Positions 8,138 to 35,719 of a stretch of DNA of 43,253 nucleotides are shown piece after piece; the first letter of the stretch is position 1; the number at the start of each line of letters is the position of its first letter. The notes beneath the pieces are model-generated. The model was not told the origin of the DNA, did not search any database, and saw nothing but the letters and a program-made list of their open reading frames with translations. The stretch is from Candidatus Omnitrophota bacterium. Lineage in GTDB: Bacteria > Omnitrophota > Gorgyraeia > JAHIPI01. The stretch covers positions 1 to 43,253 of the forward strand of contig JAFGFD010000090.1 in assembly GCA_016931215.1 (NCBI GenBank). The letters are read 5' to 3'. The translations under genes were made by a program, and so were the position numbers.

Positions 8138-8854
8138 ATGAAAAGACCCATATTCTCTAAGATAGTCCTTAAGATAAGCGGAGAAGCTTTGCAGGGTCGT
8201 CTTGGGCATGGGATAGATGCGGATGTCATTAAATCCGTTGCGATGCAGATCAAAGAGATCCACGATTTAGGTGTCCAGATAGCAGTTGTGATCGGGGGCG
8301 GTAACATATTCAGAGGCAATGTTGCTGAGACAAGGGGCATAGACAGGGTTACCGCCGACTATATGGGCATGCTAGCGACGGTTATCAACGGTATGGCACT
8401 GCAGGACGCTCTTGAAAAGGCGGACGTCCAAACGAGAGTGATGACAGCGATAGAGATGAAAGAGGTTGCCGAACCGTTTATCAGGCGCAGGGCCATGAGA
8501 CATCTTGAGAAAAAAAGAGTTATAGTATTCGTTGGCGGTACGGGAAACCCTTATTTCACCACGGACACCACAGCTGCGCTAAGAGCGATTGAAATCGGGG
8601 CCGATGTCATACTGAAGGCGACAAAGGTCGACGGCGTCTACTCGGCCGATCCGGTTAAGCATAAAGATGCAAAACGTTTCAAAAGATTAAAATATCTGGA
8701 CGTAATAAAGAGAAATCTCAAGGTAATGGACGTTACGGCCATAAGTTTATGTATGGATAACAAATTGCCCATAATCGTATTCGATCTTTTTAAGAAAGGA
8801 AATATCAAAAAAGTTGTTCTCGGAGAGAACATAGGCACAGTCGTTGAGGGGTGA
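8138..8854 (+). CDS. pyrH: UMP kinase
   Basis: [18 protein letters not shown] and GGGNIFRG motifs. I prefer the ATG at 8138 over the TTG at 8081, which would add 19 non-conserved residues. Confidence 0.9.
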
Positions 8855-8857
8855 GGT

Positions 8858-9421
8858 ATGGAGACGGTAAAAGATGTTGTGTATGACGTAGAATCTAAGA
8901 TGAAGAAGACCGTGGAAGCGACGCACAGGGAGTTCAATACCGTGAGAACGGGCCGGGCAAACACGGCTATGGTGGAAGGGCTACATGTGGAGTATTATGG
9001 GCAGGATGTACCGCTGAGACAGATAGCCGGTATCTCTGCGCCCGATGCGCGACTGATTGTCATCCAGCCATGGGATCCCCAGGCCCTAGCTTCGATAGAG
9101 AAGTCTATAATGAAGTCGGATATCGGGATAACGCCGACGAATGACGGGAAGATTATAAGACTCAGCATACCTCCGCTTACACAGGAGAGGCGCGAGGAAC
9201 TGGCCAAAGTGATCAAAAAGATGGCGGAGGACGGCAAAGTTTCGCTTAGATCAACCAGGCACCACGCCAATGATATAATAGATAAGCTTGAGAAAGACAA
9301 AAAGATCAGCGAAGACGATAAGTTTAACGGCCATAAAGAGATCCAAAGGCTTATAGACAAGTATTCCGAAGAGATAGATAAGATATTTAAGGTCAAGGAA
9401 ACAGAGATTACAAGTCATTAG
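8858..9421 (+). CDS. frr: Ribosome recycling factor
   Basis: 187 aa. REFNTVRTGRAN....VEYYG and the helical C-terminal half. Canonical pyrH-frr order. Confidence 0.95.
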   Translation: METVKDVVYDVESKMKKTVEATHREFNTVRTGRANTAMVEGLHVEYYGQDVPLRQIAGISAPDARLIVIQPWDPQALASIEKSIMKSDIGITPTNDGKIIRLSIPPLTQERREELAKVIKKMAEDGKVSLRSTRHHANDIIDKLEKDKKISEDDKFNGHKEIQRLIDKYSEEIDKIFKVKETEITSH

Positions 9422-9448
9422 TTCGTATATTTGATAAAGAAATAAAGT

Positions 9449-9524
9449 GGGCCGCTAGCTCATCTGGCAGAGCACCGCCCTTTTAAGGCGGGTGTAGAAG
9501 GTTCGAGTCCTTCGCGGCTCACCA
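9449..9524 (+). tRNA. tRNA-Lys (anticodon UUU)
   Basis: Hand-folded cloverleaf: acceptor gggccgc/gcggctc (one G-U), D arm gctc/gagc, anticodon arm ccgcc-cTTTTaa-ggcgg, T arm gaagg-ttcgagt-ccttc, discriminator A, encoded CCA. Confidence 0.95.
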
Positions 9525-9706
9525 GCATTTTACTTTGTTGTGAGACGCCGGCTTGCTCGAAGTGAGGTTTCGCCGACGAGTAGGAGGAAAAGCGCATACT
9601 TCCTCGAATTGCAGAAGATAGCGACAGAAACCGAGTGGCCGACCCGAGTATCTTGGCGAACGAAGTGAGCCGAACGAGGGCGCCGAGTCCTTCGCGGCTC
9701 ACCAGC
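9525..9706 (+). repeat. tRNA-3'-flank element, copy K: ~157-nt non-coding insert plus an exact 23-nt copy of the tRNA-Lys 3' end
   Basis: 9684-9706 equals 9504-9526 (cgagtccttcgcggctcaccagc). The interior is homologous to 22061-22213. There is no credible ORF. Confidence 0.6.
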
Positions 9707-13663: not shown

Positions 13664-14350
13664 TCAAAAAAGATATTTTAATGCGGTAAAGATATATCTC
13701 AACCAGACCTTACTCAAGACAATTGCCGAAACACCCGTCTTTCTCGCGTATTCATGACTTGGGATTTCCTCTATCTTGAAACCAAGTTTAAGGGCCTTCA
13801 TCACCATCTCTTGTTCGATTGTGGTTATGTTCTCCCTTAGATTCAGCGTTTGTGCCATATTGGTCTTTATCGCCCTGAACCCATTTTGCACGTCTGTAAG
13901 TTTCTGTCGCCATCTTATGTTTATGATAAGGTTTATTATGACACTTCCAAGTAGTCGCAGGGTCTTTTCCATATCTCCCTGCAACTCGTCGCTGCCGCCT
14001 TTCCCTCGCGAAGCTATTACCATATCTGCCTTGCCGTCAGCTATGGGCTGTACAAGATGAGGTATATCTTTTGGATCGTGCGAACCGTCGGCGTCCATGA
14101 AGACTATAATATCACCCCGGGCCTTCTCTATGCCAAGCCTTATGGCGATACCTTTACCACGGCCGCTGTCCTGGCAGACTCTCGCGCCTTCATTTCTGGA
14201 TATCGCACGAGTGTCGTCCCCGGAAAGCCCATCTACAACGAGGATTTCATAAGCATACTTTTTTGCCTCTAAGATGATATTTCTTATGGTAGGCGCTTCA
14301 TTTTTGGCAGGTATCACCACTGATATGCGTGGTTTTTTTTCCTCGATCAT
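13664..14350 (-). CDS. GT2 glycosyltransferase (polyprenyl-phosphate sugar synthase type, DPM1/ArnC-like)
   Basis: 228 aa. ISVVIPAKNE, VVDGLSGDDT and FMDADGSHDP motifs. Confidence 0.8.
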   Translation of the reverse strand: MIEEKKPRISVVIPAKNEAPTIRNIILEAKKYAYEILVVDGLSGDDTRAISRNEGARVCQDSGRGKGIAIRLGIEKARGDIIVFMDADGSHDPKDIPHLVQPIADGKADMVIASRGKGGSDELQGDMEKTLRLLGSVIINLIINIRWRQKLTDVQNGFRAIKTNMAQTLNLRENITTIEQEMVMKALKLGFKIEEIPSHEYARKTGVSAIVLSKVWLRYIFTALKYLF

Positions 14351-14470
14351 GACAAGCCCGCTTATCTCTTCGCTATAATAATTTTTTACGGTTAAAATTT
14401 GATATCGTTGCTATTATATCAATTACCATTGGACGCTGCAACGAAAATATTCTGAAAAGAAAAAAATTTA

Positions 14471-14499
14471 TTGAGAAAAGGTGATTTAAGATGTATAAT
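14471..14499 (+). promoter_or_regulatory. Sigma70-type promoter candidate
   Basis: TTGAGA, 17 nt, TATAAT, about 100 nt upstream of the YHS-domain gene. Confidence 0.5.
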
Positions 14500-14596
14500 A
14501 ATTACACATTAGTATTATACATTTCTATTATGCGCCATATTAATAGCATTATCTCTTTGGACGGATAGATAGTTACAACAAAAGATGGAGGGCAGC

Positions 14597-15049
14597 ATGA
14601 CGAAGAGATTTGACCCAAAGGTTCTTTTTATCTGCTTGGTTTTCATGGCATTATCCTCAGGCAAGTCTTATTCGGTATCGGTCGATGAGGACGGTGTCCC
14701 TATAGCAATACAAGGTTATGACCCAGTCGCCTACCACACCGAGTATCACGCCACAAAAGGTTACAGCAGCGAATGCTATAAGTATAAGGACATGATGTGG
14801 TATTTCTGCAGTACCGCGAACAAGGAACTCTTCGTAAAAGACCCAGGGAGATATATGCCTGCCTATAACGGATATTGTGCCCATTGTATGAGTTTTAAGG
14901 GATTTAAAAAGCTTTCGGACCCCAATGTCTGGACGATCGAAGACGAAAGGTTATTTCTCTTTTCGGCGGAATACAAAAAAGAAACGTGGGGCAACAATGC
15001 GAAAAAGAATATCGAAAAAGGCGACAAACATTGGGAATCAATAAATTAA
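14597..15049 (+). CDS. Secreted YHS-domain protein
   Basis: Signal-like N-terminus, then GYDPVAYH....KG, YFCSTANKELFVKDPGRYMPAYNGYC and LFLFS motifs. ATG at 14597 sits 4 nt after ggaggg; the track start at 14585 is also possible. Confidence 0.65.
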   Translation: MTKRFDPKVLFICLVFMALSSGKSYSVSVDEDGVPIAIQGYDPVAYHTEYHATKGYSSECYKYKDMMWYFCSTANKELFVKDPGRYMPAYNGYCAHCMSFKGFKKLSDPNVWTIEDERLFLFSAEYKKETWGNNAKKNIEKGDKHWESIN

Positions 15050-15251
15050 TCTTTTAGCAGTTTCTATTCATGAAATTGTAACACCCATTCCTTGTCTAAT
15101 CCCCCTGGCTTTTTTATTCGATATTGTGATTGATTTTTTATATGATATCTGCTAATCTTAAACTGAAATATGTAACATATCAACAGCTTAAATGCCGTAA
15201 ATTCTGTTCTTTATTTTTGCTGAAGCGGGGAATTGAAAAATCTCGAGTTAA

Positions 15252-16775
15252 ATGAATCAGTATATAAAAGAACAAAAATCCATACGTAGATTAATACCTT
15301 CCTATTTTGTCCGCATAGCTTCTCTGCTAGTAATCTCATATGGGACTATAATCCGTTTGCACGAATATATAAGAAACCGTTCTCTTTGGTTGGACGAGGC
15401 CTTTGTAGCCCTCAATGTACTTGATAAGTCTATTTCCCAGCTCTTGACTCAGCCGTTCGACTATAGGCAGGCGGCTCCCGTCATGTACATTCTCTTGACG
15501 AAATTTTTGGTTTTGATATTTGGAAGCAGTGAATATGTATTGCGATTTATACCGTTATTAGCAGGCATCGCATCTATCTTCGTATTTTTTATTTTAGTGA
15601 AAAGACTGACTGGAGGAAAAGGCATTTTAATAGCTCTAATCTTCTTTTCGTTTTCAACCATGCTACTGCGCTATTCAGTAGAGGTAAAACAGTACTCGAC
15701 AGACGTTCTTATTTCTTTGTTGATATTGTACTGTGGACTCTCTTTTTTGTCGATTAGGTTCAATCTTTTAAGGGCACTTACTTTGGGGGCAATAGGCGCG
15801 TGCGCCGTATGGCTGAGCCATCCTTCAGCATTCATGCTTGCCGGACTAGGCTTAGCTTTATTATACCGTTCTTTTTCAAAAAAAGACTTAGGGCAGATAC
15901 ATTACTGGTGTCTCAGTATCTCCATCTGGGTTGTGAGCTTCGGTATTTTTTATTTCCTTTCATTGCGGCATATTGAGCATAATTCTGAATTGCGGTTATA
16001 CTGGGCGGAGTCTTTTATGCCCGTCCCACTGTCATTACAAGAAGCGAAACTTTTTTATAAATTATTTTTAGGCATGTTTTGGGAAGTGGGAGGGATGCGT
16101 TTTGATTTTTTAGGATTATTTCTCTTTCTACTAGGCTCACACTCGGTGTATAAAAGAGACAGGAAAGTAGCTATATTGTTATTGGCACCTCTTGTATTTA
16201 CTGTCATCGCATCTTTTATGCATAAATATCCCTTCAAGGGAAGGTTACTTTTATTTTACGCACCCGTTTTGTATATATTAGTGACTGAAGGATTGGTATT
16301 TTTTGTCGATAATAAATTATTGTTATCAAAAGCAATAGGGTCCGTTCTTATATGCGTAATGTTATGGCATCCTATCGTAATAGCGCCCAAGCACTTGTCT
16401 TCAAGCCTCTTCCATTCGGAGGAAATACGGCCCGCTTTAGAATACCTGAGGAGTCATTTTAAGGAAGGGGATGATATATACTTATATTATTCAACGTATT
16501 TCTGCTTTAAATACTATGCTGAAAATTATGGATTTGAGGATATCGATTATATCAAAGGTGTCCAGGGGACACACGATAGAGAAAAATACATACGCGATCT
16601 TTCGCGCTTAAAGGGAAGAGGAAGGGTTTGGTTTATATTCACACATGTGCAAAAGGATGAACGGGCTGAGACAAACGACGAAGAATACATAGTCACCCAT
16701 CTCGATACACTCGGGAAACAATCGGAACATATTCAATCAGACGGAGCCTCGCTCTATTTGTACGAGCTAAATTAG
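15252..16775 (+). CDS. GT-C fold membrane glycosyltransferase (GT39/GT83, ArnT/PMT-like)
   Basis: 507 aa. About 10 N-terminal TM helices, LWLDEAF acidic motif in the first loop, soluble C-terminal domain. Confidence 0.65.
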   Translation: MNQYIKEQKSIRRLIPSYFVRIASLLVISYGTIIRLHEYIRNRSLWLDEAFVALNVLDKSISQLLTQPFDYRQAAPVMYILLTKFLVLIFGSSEYVLRFIPLLAGIASIFVFFILVKRLTGGKGILIALIFFSFSTMLLRYSVEVKQYSTDVLISLLILYCGLSFLSIRFNLLRALTLGAIGACAVWLSHPSAFMLAGLGLALLYRSFSKKDLGQIHYWCLSISIWVVSFGIFYFLSLRHIEHNSELRLYWAESFMPVPLSLQEAKLFYKLFLGMFWEVGGMRFDFLGLFLFLLGSHSVYKRDRKVAILLLAPLVFTVIASFMHKYPFKGRLLLFYAPVLYILVTEGLVFFVDNKLLLSKAIGSVLICVMLWHPIVIAPKHLSSSLFHSEEIRPALEYLRSHFKEGDDIYLYYSTYFCFKYYAENYGFEDIDYIKGVQGTHDREKYIRDLSRLKGRGRVWFIFTHVQKDERAETNDEEYIVTHLDTLGKQSEHIQSDGASLYLYELN

Positions 16776-16815
16776 GTAAAGCGATAAATGAGGGCCACTG
16801 CAGGTATTTTTAGAC

Positions 16816-18273
16816 TTAATTTACTAGATTTTCTATTCTGCGCATTCTATATATAATAAGCCTACTGGTTTCATTAACAATGGGGGAATAATAGTCCCAT
16901 ACTATCTTGCCGTCCTTTGTGACTTCAAATACATGCCCTTTGTTACTTTCCGTAATCAATGTATTTCCGTTGTCAAGCCTTTGGCACGATCCCTGAGTTT
17001 TTGAAAACAATGACTGAGGAGGCGTAGCCATATACTGCCATACAATCGATTCTTTTTTAGGTTCTACCTCGATGACGCGCGAATAATCCCTGTGTTTACC
17101 GTTTTCAAAAAATAGAACATTGCCGTTCTTTAAAAAAGAAGCTGCGTGCAATCCGTCGAATTTTTTATTTAATTTCCATACTACTTTTCCGTCGGCAGCA
17201 TTAAATATCAAAAGATCGCTTGTGAAAAAGCTCGAGACCAATATATCACCTTTTTCACATAGGCCATCTATATCCCTCTCGGCTGATTCGACCGAATTCG
17301 TATGATATACGTCAAACTTTAAATCCTCTTGTGTCAACAGGTGGCTTCTTTGAACGTCATTATCGAAAAAGCAGTTATCTATAACGCCTTTTTCGATTAT
17401 TTTCCAAACAAGATTAGGATTTAACATAAAATGGTACAGTTTAATTATTGTTGGGACTGAGATCACATCTTTATATTGGCTTAGAAGAGAGATCTCATTT
17501 TTAACATCGCCGTCTTTTGATAAAACCGTTACGTATTCGACTTTTATCGGTACGGGTAGGCCGCAGAGTAAAATTATCTCCCACTTATATGTAAGTACAA
17601 ATATGTCACCGTTATCCGCTGTGTCAGCGTCGTGATGGGCCGCGATATTTATAACCCATCTTATGTTGGATTCCCAATCCAACATATACAGTTTATCGTA
17701 GTCGGCCTGAAGTATGAGATTACCATCCTTGAGAAATTCGGCAAATCCGATTTTTGATATATCTTCATTTTTTACGCTCCACTCATTTATGACGTTACCT
17801 TCCATGTCTATAAGATAAACTTTGGGTTCTTCGTTATTTGCGACGAAGAGGTTATATCCTTTATAGCTAAGATTCTCGTCATGAAAAGTTACGGCCTCTT
17901 TACTGTCGGTTTCACGAATCGGGGTTTTGCATAAATACGGCAGGCTCATGAGACGGTCTTCCGGGGATATTTTGCAAAAAACATAGCTATTCATGCGGCA
18001 AACACAGACTATAACGCATGCCAGGATAAAAAAGATTAATGCCGCGTGAAAATATCTATTTCCGTTCTTTTTAGCGATTAATTTCCTGAGCAATAATACG
18101 TACAGTAATTTGCATAAGCCATATATAATCAAAACGCAAAAAAGGAGAGATAGAACAAAAAACCAGATGATGTATAGGAAAATATTATTATTGATTACTA
18201 TGAATATCGCTGCTAAAAACAACGCACCTAATATTATTAATATCTTTTTCAAGGCCGAATCCCTGTTTTGCAA
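16816..18273 (-). CDS. Membrane-anchored arylsulfotransferase (ASST)-like beta-propeller protein
   Basis: 485 aa. N-terminal TM helices, then repeated NGN/DGN..L blades: AAHHDADTADNGDIFV, DVYHTNSVE, GDILVSSF, LHAASFLKNGNVLFFENG, CQRLDNGNTLITES..GHVFEVTKDGKIVW. Confidence 0.5.
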   Translation of the reverse strand: MQNRDSALKKILIILGALFLAAIFIVINNNIFLYIIWFFVLSLLFCVLIIYGLCKLLYVLLLRKLIAKKNGNRYFHAALIFFILACVIVCVCRMNSYVFCKISPEDRLMSLPYLCKTPIRETDSKEAVTFHDENLSYKGYNLFVANNEEPKVYLIDMEGNVINEWSVKNEDISKIGFAEFLKDGNLILQADYDKLYMLDWESNIRWVINIAAHHDADTADNGDIFVLTYKWEIILLCGLPVPIKVEYVTVLSKDGDVKNEISLLSQYKDVISVPTIIKLYHFMLNPNLVWKIIEKGVIDNCFFDNDVQRSHLLTQEDLKFDVYHTNSVESAERDIDGLCEKGDILVSSFFTSDLLIFNAADGKVVWKLNKKFDGLHAASFLKNGNVLFFENGKHRDYSRVIEVEPKKESIVWQYMATPPQSLFSKTQGSCQRLDNGNTLITESNKGHVFEVTKDGKIVWDYYSPIVNETSRLIIYRMRRIENLVN

Positions 18274-18320
18274 TAGGTGTATGAGACCATATATTACCGT
18301 TTTTCATCGGAGGGGGAAAA

Positions 18321-19001
18321 TCATTGCATATTAAGTTTAAATATATAAGCGATAAATAGAATACCATTTCGAATAGAGATCTTACTTCTACCCTTTATTC
18401 TGCCCTTGCAGACATATGGCAATTCGATAATTCTTTTACTCGCACATTTAATGAGTATTGCAGGCAGGCATTTAGGGCCGAATGGCTCTATATGCATATC
18501 TTCTATAATTTTTTTTCTCAATACAAAGTATCCAGACAGAGGATCCCTTATTTTTTTAAGATTCGGCAAAAATAAGTGAGTGATAAAAATGGCAAATTTT
18601 GAAAGGAACATCCTCTTCTTGGGCCAATTGAGCAGCACTGCTTTGTCGACATAGCGGCTTCCGATGACTACGTCATATTTGTTTAGGTAGTCATAAAATA
18701 CGGATAAGTACTCCGCGGGATGTTGAAAATCGGCATTTAAAGTAGCTACTATATCTCCTCCCGATTCCTTTATTCCATCCATTACAGCTGACGCCAAACC
18801 TCTCTTTCTGAGCCTGTGCAATACTTTAATATTTTTATATCTGTTCTTGAGAGACTCGGCTATTTTACCCGTTCCGTCCGGGCTGCCGTCATCCACGATT
18901 ATTATTTCATGATCGACTTTATCTAACGATTTAGCGACATCGCGGATAAAATCATCAAGATTTTCGGATTCGTTATATGTAGGTATTATTATTGAGAGCA
19001 T
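18321..19001 (-). CDS. GT2 polyprenyl-phosphate mannose/glycose synthase-like glycosyltransferase
   Basis: 226 aa. LSIIIPTYNESENL, IIIVDDGSPDGT and LNADFQHP motifs. Confidence 0.85.
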   Translation of the reverse strand: MLSIIIPTYNESENLDDFIRDVAKSLDKVDHEIIIVDDGSPDGTGKIAESLKNRYKNIKVLHRLRKRGLASAVMDGIKESGGDIVATLNADFQHPAEYLSVFYDYLNKYDVVIGSRYVDKAVLLNWPKKRMFLSKFAIFITHLFLPNLKKIRDPLSGYFVLRKKIIEDMHIEPFGPKCLPAILIKCASKRIIELPYVCKGRIKGRSKISIRNGILFIAYIFKLNMQ

Positions 19002-19013
19002 ACGGATCAGTTT

Positions 19014-20000
19014 TTATCGCTGTCTTGAGAAATAAAGCTGATGGGCCTGAAGTTCGTATCTATCTTTCGTAGAGCGAATGTATTCAATAGTTTTAGCGAT
19101 ACCGTCCTTGACGGTTATTCTCGGATCAAATCCCAGCACCTTTTTTTGCTTAGTGACATCGGCAAGGAGTCTTAAGGCGTATATATTTATCGGAACAGGA
19201 ACGTATATGGGCTCCAAAGAAGTCCCAAGGCGATCGTTTATCATTTGAACCACCTCGTTGAAACTGGTTTCTTTGCCGGTGCCAAGGTTTATTATTTCGT
19301 TCTCAAAATTAAGATCATTTGCCCTGACCAAGGCCTCTACTACATCGTCGACGAAGATAAAATCCCTCGTCTGCGTTCCGTCTCCCCATATAATAGGTCT
19401 CTGCCGTTCGAGCATTGCCCAGGCAAACAGAGATATTACGTTCGCATAACCTTCTTTAGTCTCTTCACCGTAACCAAAGACGCTAAAAGGCCTTACGCCC
19501 ATGCACCTGATGCCGTATCTTTTGAAATAATGTCCGGCGGCCTCTTCGTTAAATTTCTTTGTCAAAGACTTTAAATCAGGGGGGTCTATATTCATGTCTT
19601 CACTGTATGGCAGGTCGTTACCTTCATATACGGCACTTGTGCTTAAATAGATTATCCTTTTTATGCCTTCTTGCCTCATGCCTTCCAAGACGTTTATGAA
19701 CCCTTTAATAGTTATATCCGAACTTTCAACCGGATCTTCCTCAAACATCAAGAAAGATGAAGGTGCCGCCAGATGATAGACCATATCCATCCCGGACAGC
19801 GCCTGCCTTACGTCATCGTAGTCTCTTATATCTATTTCAACTACGGCAGATTCAATGCCGCTACCTAGCAAACGATCCCGACTGCCGATTTTAAAATTGT
19901 CCAAAACTTTTATATTATGGCCGGTTGACAATAAAACCTTAGCGAGCCTTCTTCCTATAAAACCGCCACCCCCGGTTATCAGTATGTTCATTATTTTCAC
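19014..20000 (-). CDS. NAD-dependent nucleotide-sugar epimerase/dehydratase (extended SDR)
   Basis: 328 aa. ILITGGGGFIGRRL glycine-rich motif. Length and layout resemble GalE/UXS. Confidence 0.85.
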   Translation of the reverse strand: MKIMNILITGGGGFIGRRLAKVLLSTGHNIKVLDNFKIGSRDRLLGSGIESAVVEIDIRDYDDVRQALSGMDMVYHLAAPSSFLMFEEDPVESSDITIKGFINVLEGMRQEGIKRIIYLSTSAVYEGNDLPYSEDMNIDPPDLKSLTKKFNEEAAGHYFKRYGIRCMGVRPFSVFGYGEETKEGYANVISLFAWAMLERQRPIIWGDGTQTRDFIFVDDVVEALVRANDLNFENEIINLGTGKETSFNEVVQMINDRLGTSLEPIYVPVPINIYALRLLADVTKQKKVLGFDPRITVKDGIAKTIEYIRSTKDRYELQAHQLYFSRQR

Positions 20001-21436
20001 CCCTCTCTTTTCTTATAGAGATACAGTATAAGTGTCTGGTCAAGCGCATTGTATTCTCCCGAATATACATTATAGTATACTACATCAAATATCTTATCGA
20101 TTTTTTTATCCGTGAACATCCCAGGTTTTCCCTGTATAAACCATAGCCTTTCGTAATTTTTTAAGTCGACGTTATCGCGGAGGATAAACCAATTTGCCTT
20201 GCTGCTAAAATTGGAGTAGTGATCAAAAAGATACATCTGCCTTTTGTCGAGAAAAAAAACTGCGTCGTTGACGTTTGCATTGCCGTCAAAATAACTTGCC
20301 GCGGACCTGTAATCGGCGTTCCTGTTTGTCGTAAAATATTGGAATAGACTAACGGTAGAAAAGGAGAAAATAAGACAGACACCTATGACCTTGATGTATC
20401 TTTTTTTGACGGTCAATAATCCTACGGCGGTTGCTATGTAGAAAGCGGTAGAGGAACCTATCGCATACTTGGGTCGGAACCTATCCGGTGATAGTATTAA
20501 AAAAACGAGAAGAAAAGGTATGATAAGCCATGTCAATAGAATCAACGCATTTTCTTTTTTCAAATTCCCTTCAAGGACATCCGCGCCTCTATTTCTACTA
20601 TTGAGGAAAAAATTAAGCACTGCTATCAGAGATATCATCATTAAGAAATAAGAGCGGGAAGACCACTGGAAGGCAGTCTCCGCTATGTCGCTGAACCGTC
20701 GCACGGGAAATATAAAAAAGTAAGCCTGCCCCGAGTATATATGATTGATTAAATAGGAGAACCTTTTTGAGGTTGCAAAAAAAGACAAAAGTGGCAAAAG
20801 CAATAATGTCAACAGAGATAGCTGTATAAACCAGAACTTTAGCTTTTTAGTTTCAAGCCGCCTATATTTAATAGAATAAAGAACAAGAAAAATAACTTGA
20901 GCCATAATGACAAATAACCCTATGCAATGTGTATAAAAAAGCAATACGCTGGACAAGATATAACCTATTATCGTATATTTGGCTCTGAATGATAGCAATC
21001 GTATGAAAAAGTAGAAGGATGACAGAGTCAGCATGGAGACCAAGCTGTACATCCTGGCTTCCTGGGAATAACTTATGTGGAAGGAGGAGATGGACAATAA
21101 AAGGGCACTCAATAGACCGATTTCTTTATTAAAAATAATCTCGCCCACTTTGTAGATTATCAATATGGCGAGAACGCCGAATATGGCAGACAGAAATCTT
21201 ATAGAATACTCCGTATTACCGAATATACCGATCCAGTACCGCAATAGAATGTAGTAAAGAGGGCCATGAAAGAAAGAAGCGCGCTCTTTTATAATTTCAT
21301 TAATTCCCGACTCGGCGGTGTGTATTGCAATACCTTCGTCCGTCCATAGACTTTCCGAACCTAAATGATAAAGCCTAAGAAACAATCCAATTAAAAAAAT
21401 AGAGGTCAAAACTAAAATGTGAAGATGACGTCTCAT
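19997..21436 (-). CDS. GT-C fold membrane glycosyltransferase (GT39/ArnT-like)
   Basis: 479 aa. SLWTDEGIAIH first-loop motif, about 11 TM helices. Overlaps the downstream epimerase start by 4 nt. Confidence 0.7.
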   Translation of the reverse strand: MRRHLHILVLTSIFLIGLFLRLYHLGSESLWTDEGIAIHTAESGINEIIKERASFFHGPLYYILLRYWIGIFGNTEYSIRFLSAIFGVLAILIIYKVGEIIFNKEIGLLSALLLSISSFHISYSQEARMYSLVSMLTLSSFYFFIRLLSFRAKYTIIGYILSSVLLFYTHCIGLFVIMAQVIFLVLYSIKYRRLETKKLKFWFIQLSLLTLLLLPLLSFFATSKRFSYLINHIYSGQAYFFIFPVRRFSDIAETAFQWSSRSYFLMMISLIAVLNFFLNSRNRGADVLEGNLKKENALILLTWLIIPFLLVFLILSPDRFRPKYAIGSSTAFYIATAVGLLTVKKRYIKVIGVCLIFSFSTVSLFQYFTTNRNADYRSAASYFDGNANVNDAVFFLDKRQMYLFDHYSNFSSKANWFILRDNVDLKNYERLWFIQGKPGMFTDKKIDKIFDVVYYNVYSGEYNALDQTLILYLYKKREG

Positions 21437-21804: not shown

Positions 21805-21895
21805 GGAGGAGTGGCTGAGCGGTTGAAAGCGGCGGTCTTGAAAACCGTTAGACTCTTTACGGGTCTCAGGGGTTCGAATCCTCTCTCCTCCGCCA
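21805..21895 (+). tRNA. tRNA-Ser (anticodon UGA)
   Basis: Acceptor ggaggag/ctcctcc, anticodon arm gcggt-cTTGAaa-accgt, long variable arm, T arm agggg-ttcgaat-cctct, discriminator G, encoded CCA. Confidence 0.95.
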
Positions 21896-22060
21896 GGATT
21901 TAAAATTGCAGCGGAGTTTTAGGATTCGAAGCGAGCGAACGCGCGACGGGCAGGAGCGATGAGGCCGTAAGTCGAAGACCGACCGCAGTGAGCGAGGGGA
22001 GGTTACGCAAGCGAGCTCCGCGAGCTGTAGTAACCGAATCCTCTCTCCTCCGCCAGGATT
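21896..22060 (+). repeat. tRNA-3'-flank element, copy S-A (divergent), ending in an exact 26-nt copy of the tRNA-Ser 3' end
   Basis: 22035-22060 equals 21875-21900 (cgaatcctctctcctccgccaggatt). The 5' half shares ttcgaa(g/t)(c/t)gag..cg(c)cgac...(t/c)aggag with copies S-B and K. Confidence 0.55.
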
Positions 22061-22232
22061 ATTACAAGATGCGGAGATGCTGAATTCGAATTGAGCCGGC
22101 GCCGACAAATAGGAGGAAAAGCGCGTACTTCTAAGTAAAACCCCAGATAGCGACAGCCGGCGATTGGCCGACCCGAACACCCTGGGGCCGAAGTTTAGGC
22201 CGGGGTGAGGGCGCCGAATCCTCTCCCCACTT
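22061..22232 (+). repeat. tRNA-3'-flank element, copy S-B, ending in a decayed copy of the tRNA-Ser 3' end
   Basis: Collinear with copy K (cgccgac..taggaggaaaagcgc.tacttc, agatagcgacag, ggccgacccga, gagggcgcc). The terminal ccgaatcctctc (22214-22225) matches the tRNA T-loop/T-stem and then diverges. The period from the previous copy is 180 nt, as at tRNA-Lys. Confidence 0.6.
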
Positions 22233-29687: not shown

Positions 29688-29774
29688 GGATTAGTGCCCA
29701 AATTGTGCCCACCTGACTCAGTAACACCTGTGTACATCTGCAAACAAATGTAAACATCCGCACAGCTTAATTTC

Positions 29775-29813
29775 TTGACAATAAAAGAGTTATGTTATAA
29801 GCTGTTTATCGAC
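29775..29813 (+). promoter_or_regulatory. Conserved promoter-like motif, copy 1
   Basis: cTTGACA, 15 nt, TATAAG (or 17 nt, TAAGCT), followed by ctgtttatcgac. Lies ~80 nt upstream of the lipoprotein/tspO pair. Confidence 0.45.
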
Positions 29814-29890
29814 GGGGAGTAAGGATTTATACTTGATTGACTACCTGCCTCTACGCCAGATTTTGAAATATTAAATCCCTATATTATCTT

Positions 29891-30643: not shown

Positions 30644-30906
30644 TCAAGCACTTTTTAAGTTAGAACACAGCTCTTTGTTAATATAGTTTTCATGGTACTG
30701 TTTAGGCGTCATATTGCCAAGCGACTGGTGCGGATAGTCCGTGTTATACGCCTCGATCCATTTGTTTAAAGCGACTTCAAAGTCGAACGGGTTATCCCAT
30801 TCATAAGGCCATACCAAGTCCTCTTTGATGGTGCGCATGACACGTTCGGTATCCGAATTGCCTTTGGGATTTGACCATGTGGTAAATATCTGCTTAATAC
30901 CAAAAA
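30644..30906 (-). pseudogene. Remnant of an IS3/IS481-type DDE transposase (C-terminal part of the rve integrase core only)
   Basis: ...NPKGNSDTERVMRTIKEDLVW....F..ALNKWIEAYNTDYPHQSLGNMTPKQY matches the end of rve-domain transposases. The upstream part of the 154-aa ORF has no transposase character. No N-terminal HTH domain or inverted repeats were seen. Confidence 0.65.
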
Positions 30907-31214
30907 GCGAGGTGATATCAGAAGCCTTGTTTTCATTCCTGAAGGAGCAAAATCTAATAAAAGCTGTAAAATAAGTCAGTCTTTTATACAGCTCGCAGAT
31001 TAAAACCCTCAATATTAGTCCGCCCGTTAGATAATATAGATCAGACCTATAAGCGTAAATTTGACTTGTTTTTTTATGTAACGCTATATGTAATAAGCGG
31101 TTACGCAAATTAATCCATACTTTTCTTGTAACCGTTAAGATTTTAATGTATACTATATTTAAGAAGGGCAGAGACTAAAGAGTTCTGTCCATTTTTTATT
31201 ATAAGGGGTATAAC

Positions 31215-31586: not shown

Positions 31587-31700
31587 TCTACCAATAACAG
31601 ATCTTTGCCTATAATATCGATATCTCTAAAATCAAAAAAGCATAGCCATTCTAACGACAAAATAACACCACTTGTCCCTGGATATCCGTGATGTAATGCC

Positions 31701-31739
31701 TTGACATTAAACAGATTATGATATACTCTATTTATCGAC
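31701..31739 (+). promoter_or_regulatory. Conserved promoter-like motif, copy 2
   Basis: cTTGACA, 15 nt, TATACT, then ctatttatcgac. Lies ~75 nt upstream of the autotransporter start. Confidence 0.45.
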
Positions 31740-31813
31740 GCTGGCCTGGTAGATTATGTCGGCTGTTTTTGTCGATAGTCCTCTATTACCTTTAACGAGA
31801 CAGGAAACGTTAA

Positions 31814-35303: not shown

Positions 35304-35504
35304 ATTTAACCCCCTTTGTTTTACGGACCGTTTTCTTAACGATTAAACAAATGAAACTAGAAAAAGTTCCGCAAAAATATAGAAATATTTCGTTTTCTGG
35401 GATTGACCGGGTTTTATACATGTCGCTATGGCCAAATTTGCCTTGCCCGAGAAAGAAAAAACCTCCTATGCCAATAAACGCCGATATCCATATGCCTTAA
35501 TATC

Positions 35505-35543
35505 TTGACATGAAAGGAGTTGTATTATAAGCTGTTTATTAAC
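35505..35543 (+). promoter_or_regulatory. Conserved promoter-like motif, copy 3
   Basis: cTTGACA, 15 nt, TATAAG, then ctgtttattaac. 24 of 27 nt are identical to copy 1 across gagtt.t.ttataagctgtttat. Lies ~175 nt upstream of the GT2-methyltransferase gene. Confidence 0.45.
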
Positions 35544-35719
35544 AATATATTGCCCATTTGCTCCTTATGAACGGTCTGTTTTTTCCTTGTCAAGCTTGAC
35601 CTCAGAAGATCAGAGTTTGTCAGATTGGATATACGGACTGGCAACGACTGAAAAGACACGGCCCAAACGTAACAGGCCGGGGGCATAGATTTCATATAAT
35701 TAATCTTACGGGTAAAATC

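Follow-up and report, generated by a model that had tools for sequence, protein, structure and literature searches.

The window (the whole stretch of DNA that was analysed, 43,253 nucleotides) contains a gene for tRNA-Lys(UUU), and the last 21 nucleotides of this tRNA, positions C56 to A76, recur exactly downstream of it. For any tRNA, we will call these last 21 nucleotides S. The two copies of S at tRNA-Lys are separated by 159 non-coding nucleotides, which together with the second copy make up what we will call an element of family E. The parts of the locus are:

9449–9524, + strand: host gene for tRNA-Lys(UUU), intact, with the CCA encoded (ARAGORN; Rfam tRNA model, 61 bits).
9504–9524, + strand: proximal S, positions C56 to A76 of tRNA-Lys (CGAGTCCTTCGCGGCTCACCA).
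9525–9539, + strand: U-rich linker GCATTTTACTTTGTT, serving at once as trailer of the tRNA and leader of the element (direct reading).
9540–9559, + strand: two-part antisense to S. GTGAG (stem A) pairs with positions 74–70; after one A/G mismatch, CGC pairs with 68–66; a non-complementary middle follows; and GCTCG (stem B) pairs with 60–56, with one G-U pair.
9560–9683, + strand: conserved core (alignments; covariation; covariance model, 145.2 bits at 9555–9691). Its blocks are, in order, AAGTGAG; helix P (9566–9571, GGTTTC, with 9627–9632, GAAACC); GCCGAC; TAGGAGGAAAAGCGCATACTTC; AGATAGCGACAG; TGGCCGACCC; hairpin H7 (9652–9657 with 9669–9674); and GAGGGCGC.
9684–9704, + strand: distal S, identical to positions 56–76 at 21 of 21 nucleotides, which closes the element.

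A first-pass annotation of this DNA had described the repeat as an exact 23-mer, CGAGTCCTTCGCGGCTCACCAGC. This sequence does occur twice and only twice, at 9504–9526 and 9684–9706, and none of 100 shuffles matched it. But the 21 nucleotides from C56 to A76 are the part that belongs to the family: the extra GC is specific to this locus, and all other copies stop at A76. The repeat is not an assembly artefact, because the Logan contig L030 (run SRR13394437), which was assembled independently, covers the element together with both copies of S and shows no difference in sequence. The annotation had also seen no credible reading frame in the insert, and we agree. The sole ORF is an antisense one of 80 amino acids (9460–9702) whose frame is not kept in the homologues, and a comparison of the homologues found no frame that is open in every copy. 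Stop codons interrupt all six frames of one homologue, and the alignment gaps are mostly of 1–2 nucleotides. With no conserved frame and such short gaps, a protein-coding insert is ruled out.

The insert had also been reported to resemble the region behind tRNA-Ser(UGA). This homology is confirmed by the direct-repeat families D7 (83% identical) and D10 (78% identical) and by the covariance model, which scores the two regions at 145 and 140 bits. The annotation was right that a close homologue lies there (22056–22214), but it took this for the only element at the site, and a second, divergent element precedes it in tandem:

21805–21895, + strand: host gene for tRNA-Ser(UGA), with its own S at 21875–21895.
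21896–22055, + strand: E1, a member of a divergent short subfamily (covariance model, 31.8 bits; inverted repeats I3 and I8). It has a linker (21896–21910), the anti-acceptor segment GCGGAG (21911–21916), the anti-T-loop segment GGATTCG (21922–21928), a core that extends to 22034, and an exact copy of S (22035–22055).
22056–22228, + strand: E2, a canonical element in tandem behind E1 (covariance model, 140.3 bits at 22082–22222). It has a linker (22056–22070), GCGGAG (22071–22076), GAATTCG (22082–22088), a core that extends to 22214, and a degenerate closing copy of S (CGAATCCTCTCCCC, 22215–22228).

E1 with its exact S, the degenerate S of E2, and the two-part antisense inside each element had all been overlooked. 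The subfamily of E1 was also found behind tRNA-Lys in locus L038 (37.9 bits) and behind tRNA-Thr in L004 (25.8 bits). Identity between the window's two canonical copies is just 66%.

Exact-pattern scans of species-representative genomes (185,579 genomes) and of JGI metagenomes identified seven more elements among chance matches. (Inspection led us to discard 6 of the 8 loci from the genome scan and 16 of the 21 loci from the metagenome scan as chance matches.) Ten copies served to build a covariance model, which was then run on the scan loci and on loci obtained later; together with reading of the loci, this yielded five further elements. In all, there are 14 distinct matches to the model at 25 bits or above, with rough E-values. 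Two of these are in the window and the rest are from metagenomic or MAG contigs. This is a small set, and because the scan patterns were taken from the canonical subfamily, the scans are biased toward it.

Thirteen of these 14 elements lie directly 3' of a tRNA gene and on the same strand; the remaining one, L024, is rearranged and lies on a 1.1-kb contig. Ten loci have an element that is closed by an exact copy of the end of its own tRNA. Position and closing copy are the two points that the first-pass annotation had suggested checking. There are at least 10 host tRNAs (Lys-UUU, Ser-UGA, Ser-GGA, Ser-GCU, Tyr-GUA, Ala-CGC, Glu-CUC, Gly-GCC, Leu-UAG, and Thr-UGU), and the elements range in size from about 160 to 210 nucleotides.

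The family probably belongs to the Omnitrophota, an assignment that rests on the names given to homologues: the best relatives of the window's RtcB (65–78% identity) are among proteins named Omnitrophota or Omnitrophica, and one of the element-bearing genomes carries the name Candidatus Omnitrophota. When six copies of the element were compared to Rfam 15, the tRNA model was the sole match, with nothing consistent up to E-values of 5–10. This agrees with the earlier remark that the insert belongs to no described family. Full-text searches of the literature found no description of such elements either, and the family is apparently undescribed so far. We also considered that the elements might come from viruses or plasmids and rejected this idea: four pattern scans of IMG/VR turned up no element (three were empty, and all 15 loci from the fourth were rejected by the covariance model), and BLASTN found no match in PLSDB or INPHARED.

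Each unit directly follows A76 of the tRNA and consists of a linker, a two-part antisense, a core, and S. The linker is AT-rich and is 13–16 nucleotides long in most copies. The antisense begins with 5–6 nucleotides that are complementary to the tRNA from position 74 down to 69 or 70, which includes the discriminator base and C74 (stem A). A middle of 4–10 nucleotides does not pair, and then 5–8 nucleotides are complementary to positions 62 down to 56, in the T-loop (stem B). The antisense has a total length of 17–20 nucleotides, versus 19 for a full complement. An anchored script found that stem A starts at C74 and stem B at C56, with a bubble between them, in 11 elements. The core is about 120 nucleotides long, with the invariant blocks AAG-GAG, GCCGAC, TAGGAGGAAAAGCGC-TAC-TC, TAGCG, TGGCCGACC, and GGGCGC, and with two helices whose sequences vary among the copies while the pairing is maintained. 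At the junction of the core and S, GGGCGC is always followed directly by C56, and S always ends at A76. The exact copy of S is 21 nucleotides in ten loci and is never longer, as checked by a script for the 42 tRNAs of these loci, all 42 of which have the CCA encoded. With E and E1 alike, the longest stretch of the tRNA end that is copied exactly is 21 nucleotides in every case.

As a single strand, an element would fold so that its two antisense segments clamp S into a stem-bubble-stem, which would close the conserved core. Such a strand could arise by read-through transcription from the tRNA, or it could be a single-stranded DNA intermediate. The structure is conserved and it covaries. In an alignment of ten sequences, pairing holds in 93% of the cells of three helices (stem B with the copy of the T-loop, helix P, and hairpin H7), and sliding the 3' partners by 1–3 columns reduces it to 29–49%. 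Both sides of a pair have changed in 11 instances, compared to 4.8 in shuffles, and none of 500 shuffles reached the observed value. (Stem A was scored by the anchored script and was left out of these formal pair counts because MAFFT misaligned the variable 5' region.) The pairing of the antisense segments with their cognate tRNA ends exceeds all of 5,000 random reassignments. One U-G wobble is invariant, and stems A and B contain G-U pairs on the tRNA-sense strand. The closing stems also form in minimum-free-energy folds of three full elements (z-scores –1.3 to –2.1); overall, the z-scores of the folds are modest (–0.2 to –2.1). Between tRNA-Lys and its element, we found no promoter-like or terminator-like site, so it is plausible that the two are co-transcribed.

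Relatives of the window's genome share the gene order rpsB-tsf-pyrH-frr-tRNALys-archease-rtcB-serS-x-tRNASer(UGA)-NaPi-phoU-y-tRNASer(GGA), and the occupancy of the three tRNA sites in this syntenic locus varies among genomes. In the window, there is an E behind tRNA-Lys, an E1 and an E behind tRNA-Ser(UGA), and nothing at the tRNA-Ser(GGA) site; in L031 and L032, an E lies solely behind tRNA-Ser(GGA) (120 bits). There, the outer copy of S is followed by GTCTT, which lies directly after the tRNA at the empty site of L035. Comparison to empty sites had been proposed for tRNA-Lys as well, and there the site is empty in L039, so presence varies between syntenic relatives. L031, L033, and L035 have other inserts behind tRNA-Lys, which are closed by 15- or 11-nucleotide copies of the same tRNA end and which contain an anti-acceptor segment; in L035, a 117-nucleotide unit is repeated 2.5 times. 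We considered a link to the archease-rtcB operon (tRNA repair or splicing) and rejected it: frr-tRNALys-archease-rtcB-serS is kept in the element-free L039 and in relatives with unrelated inserts, and other E loci lack rtcB.

The E1 unit behind tRNA-Lys in L038 allows a closer comparison. L037 and L038 encode identical RtcB proteins and have flanks that are 100% identical, and they differ cleanly by this 161-nucleotide unit. Recombination between two repeated 5' modules accounts for this, and the pair thus illustrates instability and not transposition. In arrays, the tRNA-proximal copies of S are perfect and the outermost copy is degenerate. There are also remnants: the tail of an E with an older tRNA-Tyr end in L028, and the tail of an E with a Gly-type end at a tRNA-Lys locus.

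Core subfamilies cut across tRNA types. Elements of the subfamily whose helix P has GGTTTC are 82–88% identical behind tRNA-Lys, tRNA-Gly, and tRNA-Tyr in three different samples, and each of them carries a perfectly fitted S and antisense. At tRNA-Lys, the canonical E of the window and the E1 of L038 have the same start of the antisense, GTGAGACGCC, despite having distantly related cores. This suggests a resident 5' module and exchanged cores; that is, the 5' module may stay with the tRNA locus while cores move between elements. On the other hand, two elements in L035 have an identical 13-nucleotide linker and different, correctly fitted anti-acceptor segments, which counts against a purely resident history. 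The fit of the ends to each tRNA might arise from core swapping, from selection after insertion, or from a templated step.

We propose that E is a family of small, non-autonomous insertion elements of the Omnitrophota that are specific for the 3' ends of tRNA genes; we would give this reading a probability of roughly one half. The first-pass annotation had offered two readings, a miniature non-autonomous element that targets tRNAs or a conserved structured RNA that is linked to them, and the fold, the position, and the variable presence lend support to both. An insertion at this place leaves the tRNA intact, since the duplicated sequence is the tRNA's own last 21 nucleotides. By analogy with folded recombination sites, the stem-bubble-stem clamp would be the site of recombination or target recognition, in which positions 56–74 of the tRNA gene appear as a pair of short duplexes with an unpaired centre between them. 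A protein whose gene lies elsewhere would recombine a circle or a folded copy of the element with the tRNA gene by exchanging strands within S, and this would give the order tRNA, linker, antisense, core, S, just as it is observed. Repeated integration would build tandem arrays; recombination between the repeats would remove units again without a scar; and recombination between elements would swap their cores. The single-stranded or circular intermediate, the enzyme that acts in trans, and the position of strand exchange are what we infer to connect these steps.

The earlier statement that there is no integrase or cargo still stands: the elements are non-coding and 160–210 bp long, and the flanks of the copies contain no gene for a recombinase, a transposase, a reverse transcriptase, or Cas1. 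(The only trace of this sort in the window is an unrelated rve_3 fragment at 30644–31108.) Searches of the flanks and of the sequence collections did not identify an autonomous relative or a helper enzyme. Several observations count against our proposal. Plain recombination via a pre-formed S does not explain how cores that are 82–88% identical came to be at three different tRNAs; such a fit would require something further, be it a templated step or the swapping of cores between resident modules. The absence of an element can be secondary, by scarless loss through recombination between the copies of S. And conservation of the core this strong would also fit an RNA that is used by the host.

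So we also considered that E might be a host-used or domesticated small RNA that is co-transcribed with the tRNA, with its mobility being secondary, and we view this as possible though unlikely. Enzymes of tRNA maturation would convert the transcript to a stable RNA of about 150 nucleotides: the acceptor-like closing stem and the CCA would lead to cleavage by RNase P at the 5' end, predicted between GU and GAG of stem A, and exonucleolytic trimming at the 3' end. The copy of the tRNA end could serve in processing or stability, or it could be a decoy for an enzyme or a toxin that recognizes that tRNA end. Such an RNA would account for the shared strand and the lack of a promoter or terminator between tRNA and element, for the end of S exactly at the CCA, which is the mature 3' end of a tRNA, and for the invariant U-G wobble and the G-U pairs on the tRNA-sense strand of the stems. 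It would also account for the conservation of the core, which keeps 65–88% identity across genomes in which RtcB itself shows only about 75% identity and which is intact in elements whose S has decayed (140 bits for E2 of the window and 137 bits for L004). However, some relatives have no element, or an unrelated insert, at the same tRNA, so E is dispensable at any given site. The tandem copies, the truncated remnants, and the copies with decayed S resemble the turnover of a selfish element. Furthermore, the closing stem pairs N73 and C74 and leaves only a CA overhang, which is not the normal end of a substrate for RNase P or an aminoacyl-tRNA synthetase.

The fit of the antisense to each tRNA could have another meaning. 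The two-part antisense might be a programmable guide that chooses a tRNA gene by pairing with its T-loop and acceptor end; a protein provided in trans would then join the element to the gene and copy the last 21 nucleotides. The integrating form would be RNA or folded single-stranded DNA. We consider such a guide rather unlikely. Within this reading only, we kept a guide RNA of the TnpB/Cas12 type, whose 3' guide would be S and whose adjacent motif would be GGTT. Its size and orientation fit, but it would target the resident tRNA gene, it leaves the antisense unexplained, and we found no effector gene, so we otherwise rejected it.

The fixed length of the duplication invites another explanation, a cut-and-fill transposon. 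The two strands would be nicked 21 nucleotides apart, one after A76 and the other at the 55/56 boundary; the element would be joined in, and gap repair would duplicate positions 56–76, with the tRNA body acting as a "leader." Cas1-Cas2 duplicates a CRISPR repeat in this manner. Every canonical copy does have the same length and ends of the duplication, which under this mechanism would automatically match whichever tRNA was used, and arrays with perfect tRNA-proximal and degenerate terminal repeats are also seen in CRISPR arrays. There is even a precedent in the casposase that acts at tRNA-Pro (PMC5137440). But the elements have no terminal inverted repeats (their sole inverted repeats are the antisense segments against S), no Cas1 or other transposase is encoded nearby, related families at the same sites carry 15- and 11-nucleotide copies, and the antisense's fit to each tRNA is left unexplained. 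We therefore see cut-and-fill transposition as quite improbable.

It is very improbable that the elements are deletion scars, that is, the attR-proximal ends of larger tyrosine-integrase islands that once sat in the tRNA gene and lost everything else. Such islands are classically recognized by direct repeats of the tRNA's 3' part that have their junction in the T-loop, and the intergenic regions here do gather remnants. But the left boundary (linker, antisense, and core) is uniform in every copy, so random deletions are an unlikely source; one family at 10 or more tRNA species is at odds with a single att specificity; and the covarying helices indicate selection on the fold. With the patterns that we used, there was no full-size relative in 185,579 species-representative genomes, JGI metagenomes, IMG/VR, PLSDB, or INPHARED. 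A lone copy whose relatives carry full-size integrase islands, which the first-pass annotation had raised as the outcome that would make this a scar, is not what we found. Finally, a chance match or an assembly artefact is excluded by the shuffles, by the identical independent assembly, and by the same architecture at 13 other loci from unrelated samples.

Some known kinds of sequences were rejected outright. Neither ARAGORN nor Rfam matched the elements to tmRNA, Y RNA-like RNA, RNase P RNA, known ribozymes, or group I or II introns, and the motif GGATTCGA, which resembles tmRNA, is instead the covarying complement of each T-loop. A MITE would have terminal inverted repeats and an arbitrary duplication of 2–10 bp; E lacks the former, and its duplication is always the 21 nucleotides at positions 56–76. 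An IS200/IS605 PATE or a TnpB omega-RNA is inconsistent with the 21-nucleotide duplication, with the lack of an Rfam match, and with flanks that contain no TnpA or TnpB. (E does have subterminal hairpins; the left and right ones are unrelated to each other.) An intron in the T-loop that is removed via an archaeal bulge-helix-bulge does not work, as the upstream tRNA is complete and the copies of S cannot occupy opposite strands of the helix.

Transfer RNA genes are classic landing sites for mobile DNA, and E is of a known kind in that it is a site-specific insert at the 3' end of a tRNA, flanked by a repeat of that end. To our knowledge, every well-understood element that lands in tRNA genes comes with an integrase of its own and keeps to a single tRNA. 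We found no counterpart to the combination of a geneless element, at least 10 tRNA targets, an antisense that is fitted along with a 21-nucleotide copy, and a folded core. If the clamp is the integration site, then two segments of 5–8 nucleotides would reveal, and might allow one to rewrite, the targeting of what would be a minimal site-specific element. If the antisense is a programmable guide, then E would be a geneless, nucleic-acid-guided integrating element of about 160 nucleotides that could be redirected to any tRNA; this mechanism would be new and would join those of group II introns, the bridge RNAs of IS110, and CRISPR-associated transposons. And if E is a processed RNA, then a phylum of very small bacteria about which little is known would have an abundant tRNA-linked RNA of a new class. 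In practice, tools that read repeats of tRNA 3' ends as evidence for genomic islands would misinterpret E loci.

Prophages, ICEs, and genomic islands that integrate into tRNA genes by means of tyrosine integrases, and CIMEs, which are derivatives of these without an integrase, are similar to E in several ways: they insert at the 3' end and leave the tRNA intact, they are flanked by direct repeats of the 3' segment with a junction in the T-loop, and they accrete in tandem while their outer repeats decay. Williams reportedly described, in 2002, direct repeats of the 3' part of a tRNA with a T-loop junction as the classic signature of integrase islands. The first-pass annotation had likewise compared the junction to the att site of a tyrosine integrase. 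The junction is indeed always exactly between positions 55 and 56, but its occurrence in at least 10 tRNAs is unlike a classical att site. Also unlike these elements, E is geneless and only 160–210 bp long, it uses no fewer than 10 tRNA species and has a different repeat at each, it has an internal two-part antisense and a conserved folded core, and no autonomous relative was found.

Casposons and the integration of spacers by Cas1 are similar in having a duplication of fixed length at or next to the 3' end of a tRNA, an upstream "leader" in the TΨC-loop, and a degenerate terminal repeat (PMC5137440). In particular, the casposase of Aciduliprofundum needs the TΨC-loop region of tRNA-Pro, upstream of a 15-bp target-site duplication (PMC5137440). 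However, the 21 nucleotides of E lie wholly within the tRNA, while the 15 bp overlap the tRNA by 5 bp, and E is a hundredfold smaller, without terminal inverted repeats or genes for Cas1 or PolB. A mini-casposon does not fit either: there are no terminal inverted repeats, the duplication is 21 nucleotides instead of about 14–15 bp, and the flanks contain no Cas1.

Folded single-stranded recombination sites, such as attC of integrons and attP of CTX-phi, have two short duplex arms around an unpaired centre and thereby imitate the duplex core site of a recombinase. The hairpins of attC and CTX-phi attP(+) resemble E in architecture only, with two stems, an unpaired spacer, and a variable or structured distal part; in these systems the enzyme acts in trans, as it would for E. 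They differ from E in that E has no R/L box consensus of attC, its terminal structure is a conserved 120-nucleotide core, and its target is the end of a tRNA gene, not attI or dif. On direct reading of the E sequences, we found neither the R''/R' core (GTTRRRY) nor dif-like XerC/XerD arms.

Small RNAs from tRNA trailers and RNAs with tRNA-like ends include 3'ETS-leuZ, tmRNA, and the bacterial Y RNA-like YrlA. Like E, these come from or lie next to a tRNA transcript, or have an acceptor-like 3' end with CCA. Unlike them, E has no match in Rfam or by ARAGORN, its end is literally a copy of the neighboring tRNA and varies from locus to locus, and it is multi-copy, with a presence that varies between genomes.

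Group II introns (through EBS1/EBS2 and IBS1/IBS2) and the bridge RNAs of the IS110 family choose their targets by base pairing. As in E, two short internal segments are complementary to the flanking target and co-vary with it. E differs in lacking ribozyme domains, a match to the introns in Rfam, and a recombinase gene. We know of no case in which either of these systems produces a 21-nucleotide direct repeat, whereas E has such a repeat and, in the copy of S, carries the complementary partner of its antisense in cis.

The tRNA genes of these genomes are followed by more than one family of small repeats. Besides E, the small folded non-coding element that lies directly 3' of tRNA genes and is closed by S, a copy of the last 21 nt (C56-A76) of the host tRNA, we found three others (L-numbers are comparison contigs, each with its own coordinates):

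L020 519-640; L007 from 3460; L028 2441-2560: family F, a second small repeat family
L020 1453-1575, 1078-1198, 1576-1661; L019 1-240, minus strand: families G and H

F starts immediately 3' of the tRNA's CCA or of an S copy, begins with CTAAAACGTTCGGGCTTCGGGGCTAAAAAGTAAGGAATGGG..., forms a long hairpin, and closes with ...CCGAACGTTTTTAAG; the F copy in L020 has a degenerate copy of a tRNA-Leu end inside it. G begins with TTCTACTTCGCCCTT..GCTGGTAGGGCTTCG, and its closing segment in L020 copies 15 nt of the tRNA-Gly end. H begins with CGAACCATTCGCTTCGCTCAGGTTCGTGGCACG and is found after tRNA-Lys(CUU) and also after a tRNA-Gly array. The tRNA trailers of these genomes are made up of small structured repeats, stacked on one another.

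Copies of tRNA ends also occur in other arrangements:

L004 5480-5680, minus strand: interrupted copies of the tRNA-Thr(UGU) end
L028 3075-3120: E-tail remnant (from the 3' part of E), gaagccgagtgagggtgc, then a tRNA-Tyr end

Two end copies lie 3' of the tRNA-Thr(UGU) of L004, and each is broken after position 62 by a distinct small GC-rich hairpin (cgattcc[ctgcctgccggcaggcagg]ctctcgccagctcca and cgattcct[ccgccacaaacattggcggacaag]tctcgccagctcca). In L028, the tRNA-Tyr end after the E-tail remnant has an acceptor strand unlike that of the resident tRNA-Tyr, and it is 1 nt from the tRNA-Tyr end of L004. The motif gttcctctttcaaaa is found 5' of this stretch and again 5' of the current tRNA-Tyr. 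This arrangement suggests that the entire tRNA-plus-element unit was replaced or duplicated.

The surroundings of tRNA-Ser(UGA) vary as well:

L038 11846-13576, minus strand; L037 13698-14876: large serine recombinase gene
Window 13664-21436: glycosylation gene block, 8 kb

The recombinase (576 aa; Resolvase, Recombinase, and Zn_ribbon_recom domains) is encoded next to tRNA-Ser(UGA), with the 3' end of its gene sharing the tRNA's final 15 nt. This may represent an element integrated at that tRNA; no link between the recombinase of L037/L038 and E was established. In the window, the glycosylation block (GT2, PMT_2, arylsulfotransferase-like, and epimerase genes) separates the serS-adjacent gene from tRNA-Ser(UGA); in the syntenic L031, L033, and L035, the tRNA directly follows that gene.

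Elsewhere in the window, we noticed:

30644-31108, minus strand: 154-aa ORF with an rve_3 integrase-core domain (E = 6.5e-11)
29739-29814, 31694-31740, 35469-35544; also 8503-8528: conserved sequence, 47-71 nt
1069-1282 and 1531-1744: 214-nt direct repeat (82% identical, spacing 462 nt)

The rve_3 ORF, the window's sole transposase-like sequence, is probably an IS fragment. The conserved sequence, which includes TCTTGACA..(17)..TATAAG/TATACT, precedes three genes (TspO, an autotransporter, and a GT2-methyltransferase) and looks like a common promoter or regulatory region. The direct repeat is an internal protein repeat of a 608-aa ORF (172-1998; Flg_new_2 / InlB B-repeat domain).

The interval between tRNA-Lys(UUU) and archease is an insertion hot spot, and in some relatives the tRNA itself is split:

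L031 6138-6255; L033 9337-9520; L035 9266-9560: further insert types (J and K) 3' of tRNA-Lys(UUU)
L037 9180-9422; L038 7328-7570; L058 2973-3248: small GIY-YIG nuclease gene, 80-91 aa
L031 5807-6044; also L032 and L039, about 9165-9450: group I intron in tRNA-Lys(UUU)

The 5' part of J resembles E, with a closing copy of 15 nt (cttcgcggctcacca). K is a 117-nt unit in 2.5 repeats, each closed by the 11-nt gcggctcacca, with two segments complementary to the tRNA acceptor end within. Some relatives have the nuclease gene between their tRNA-Lys inserts and archease; the window lacks it there. The window's tRNA-Lys is intron-free; in L031, L032, and L039, a LAGLIDADG_3 ORF lies just upstream of the tRNA, between it and frr, and the tRNA is split at the anticodon loop by an intron that matches Rfam's Intron_gpI (88.9 bits).
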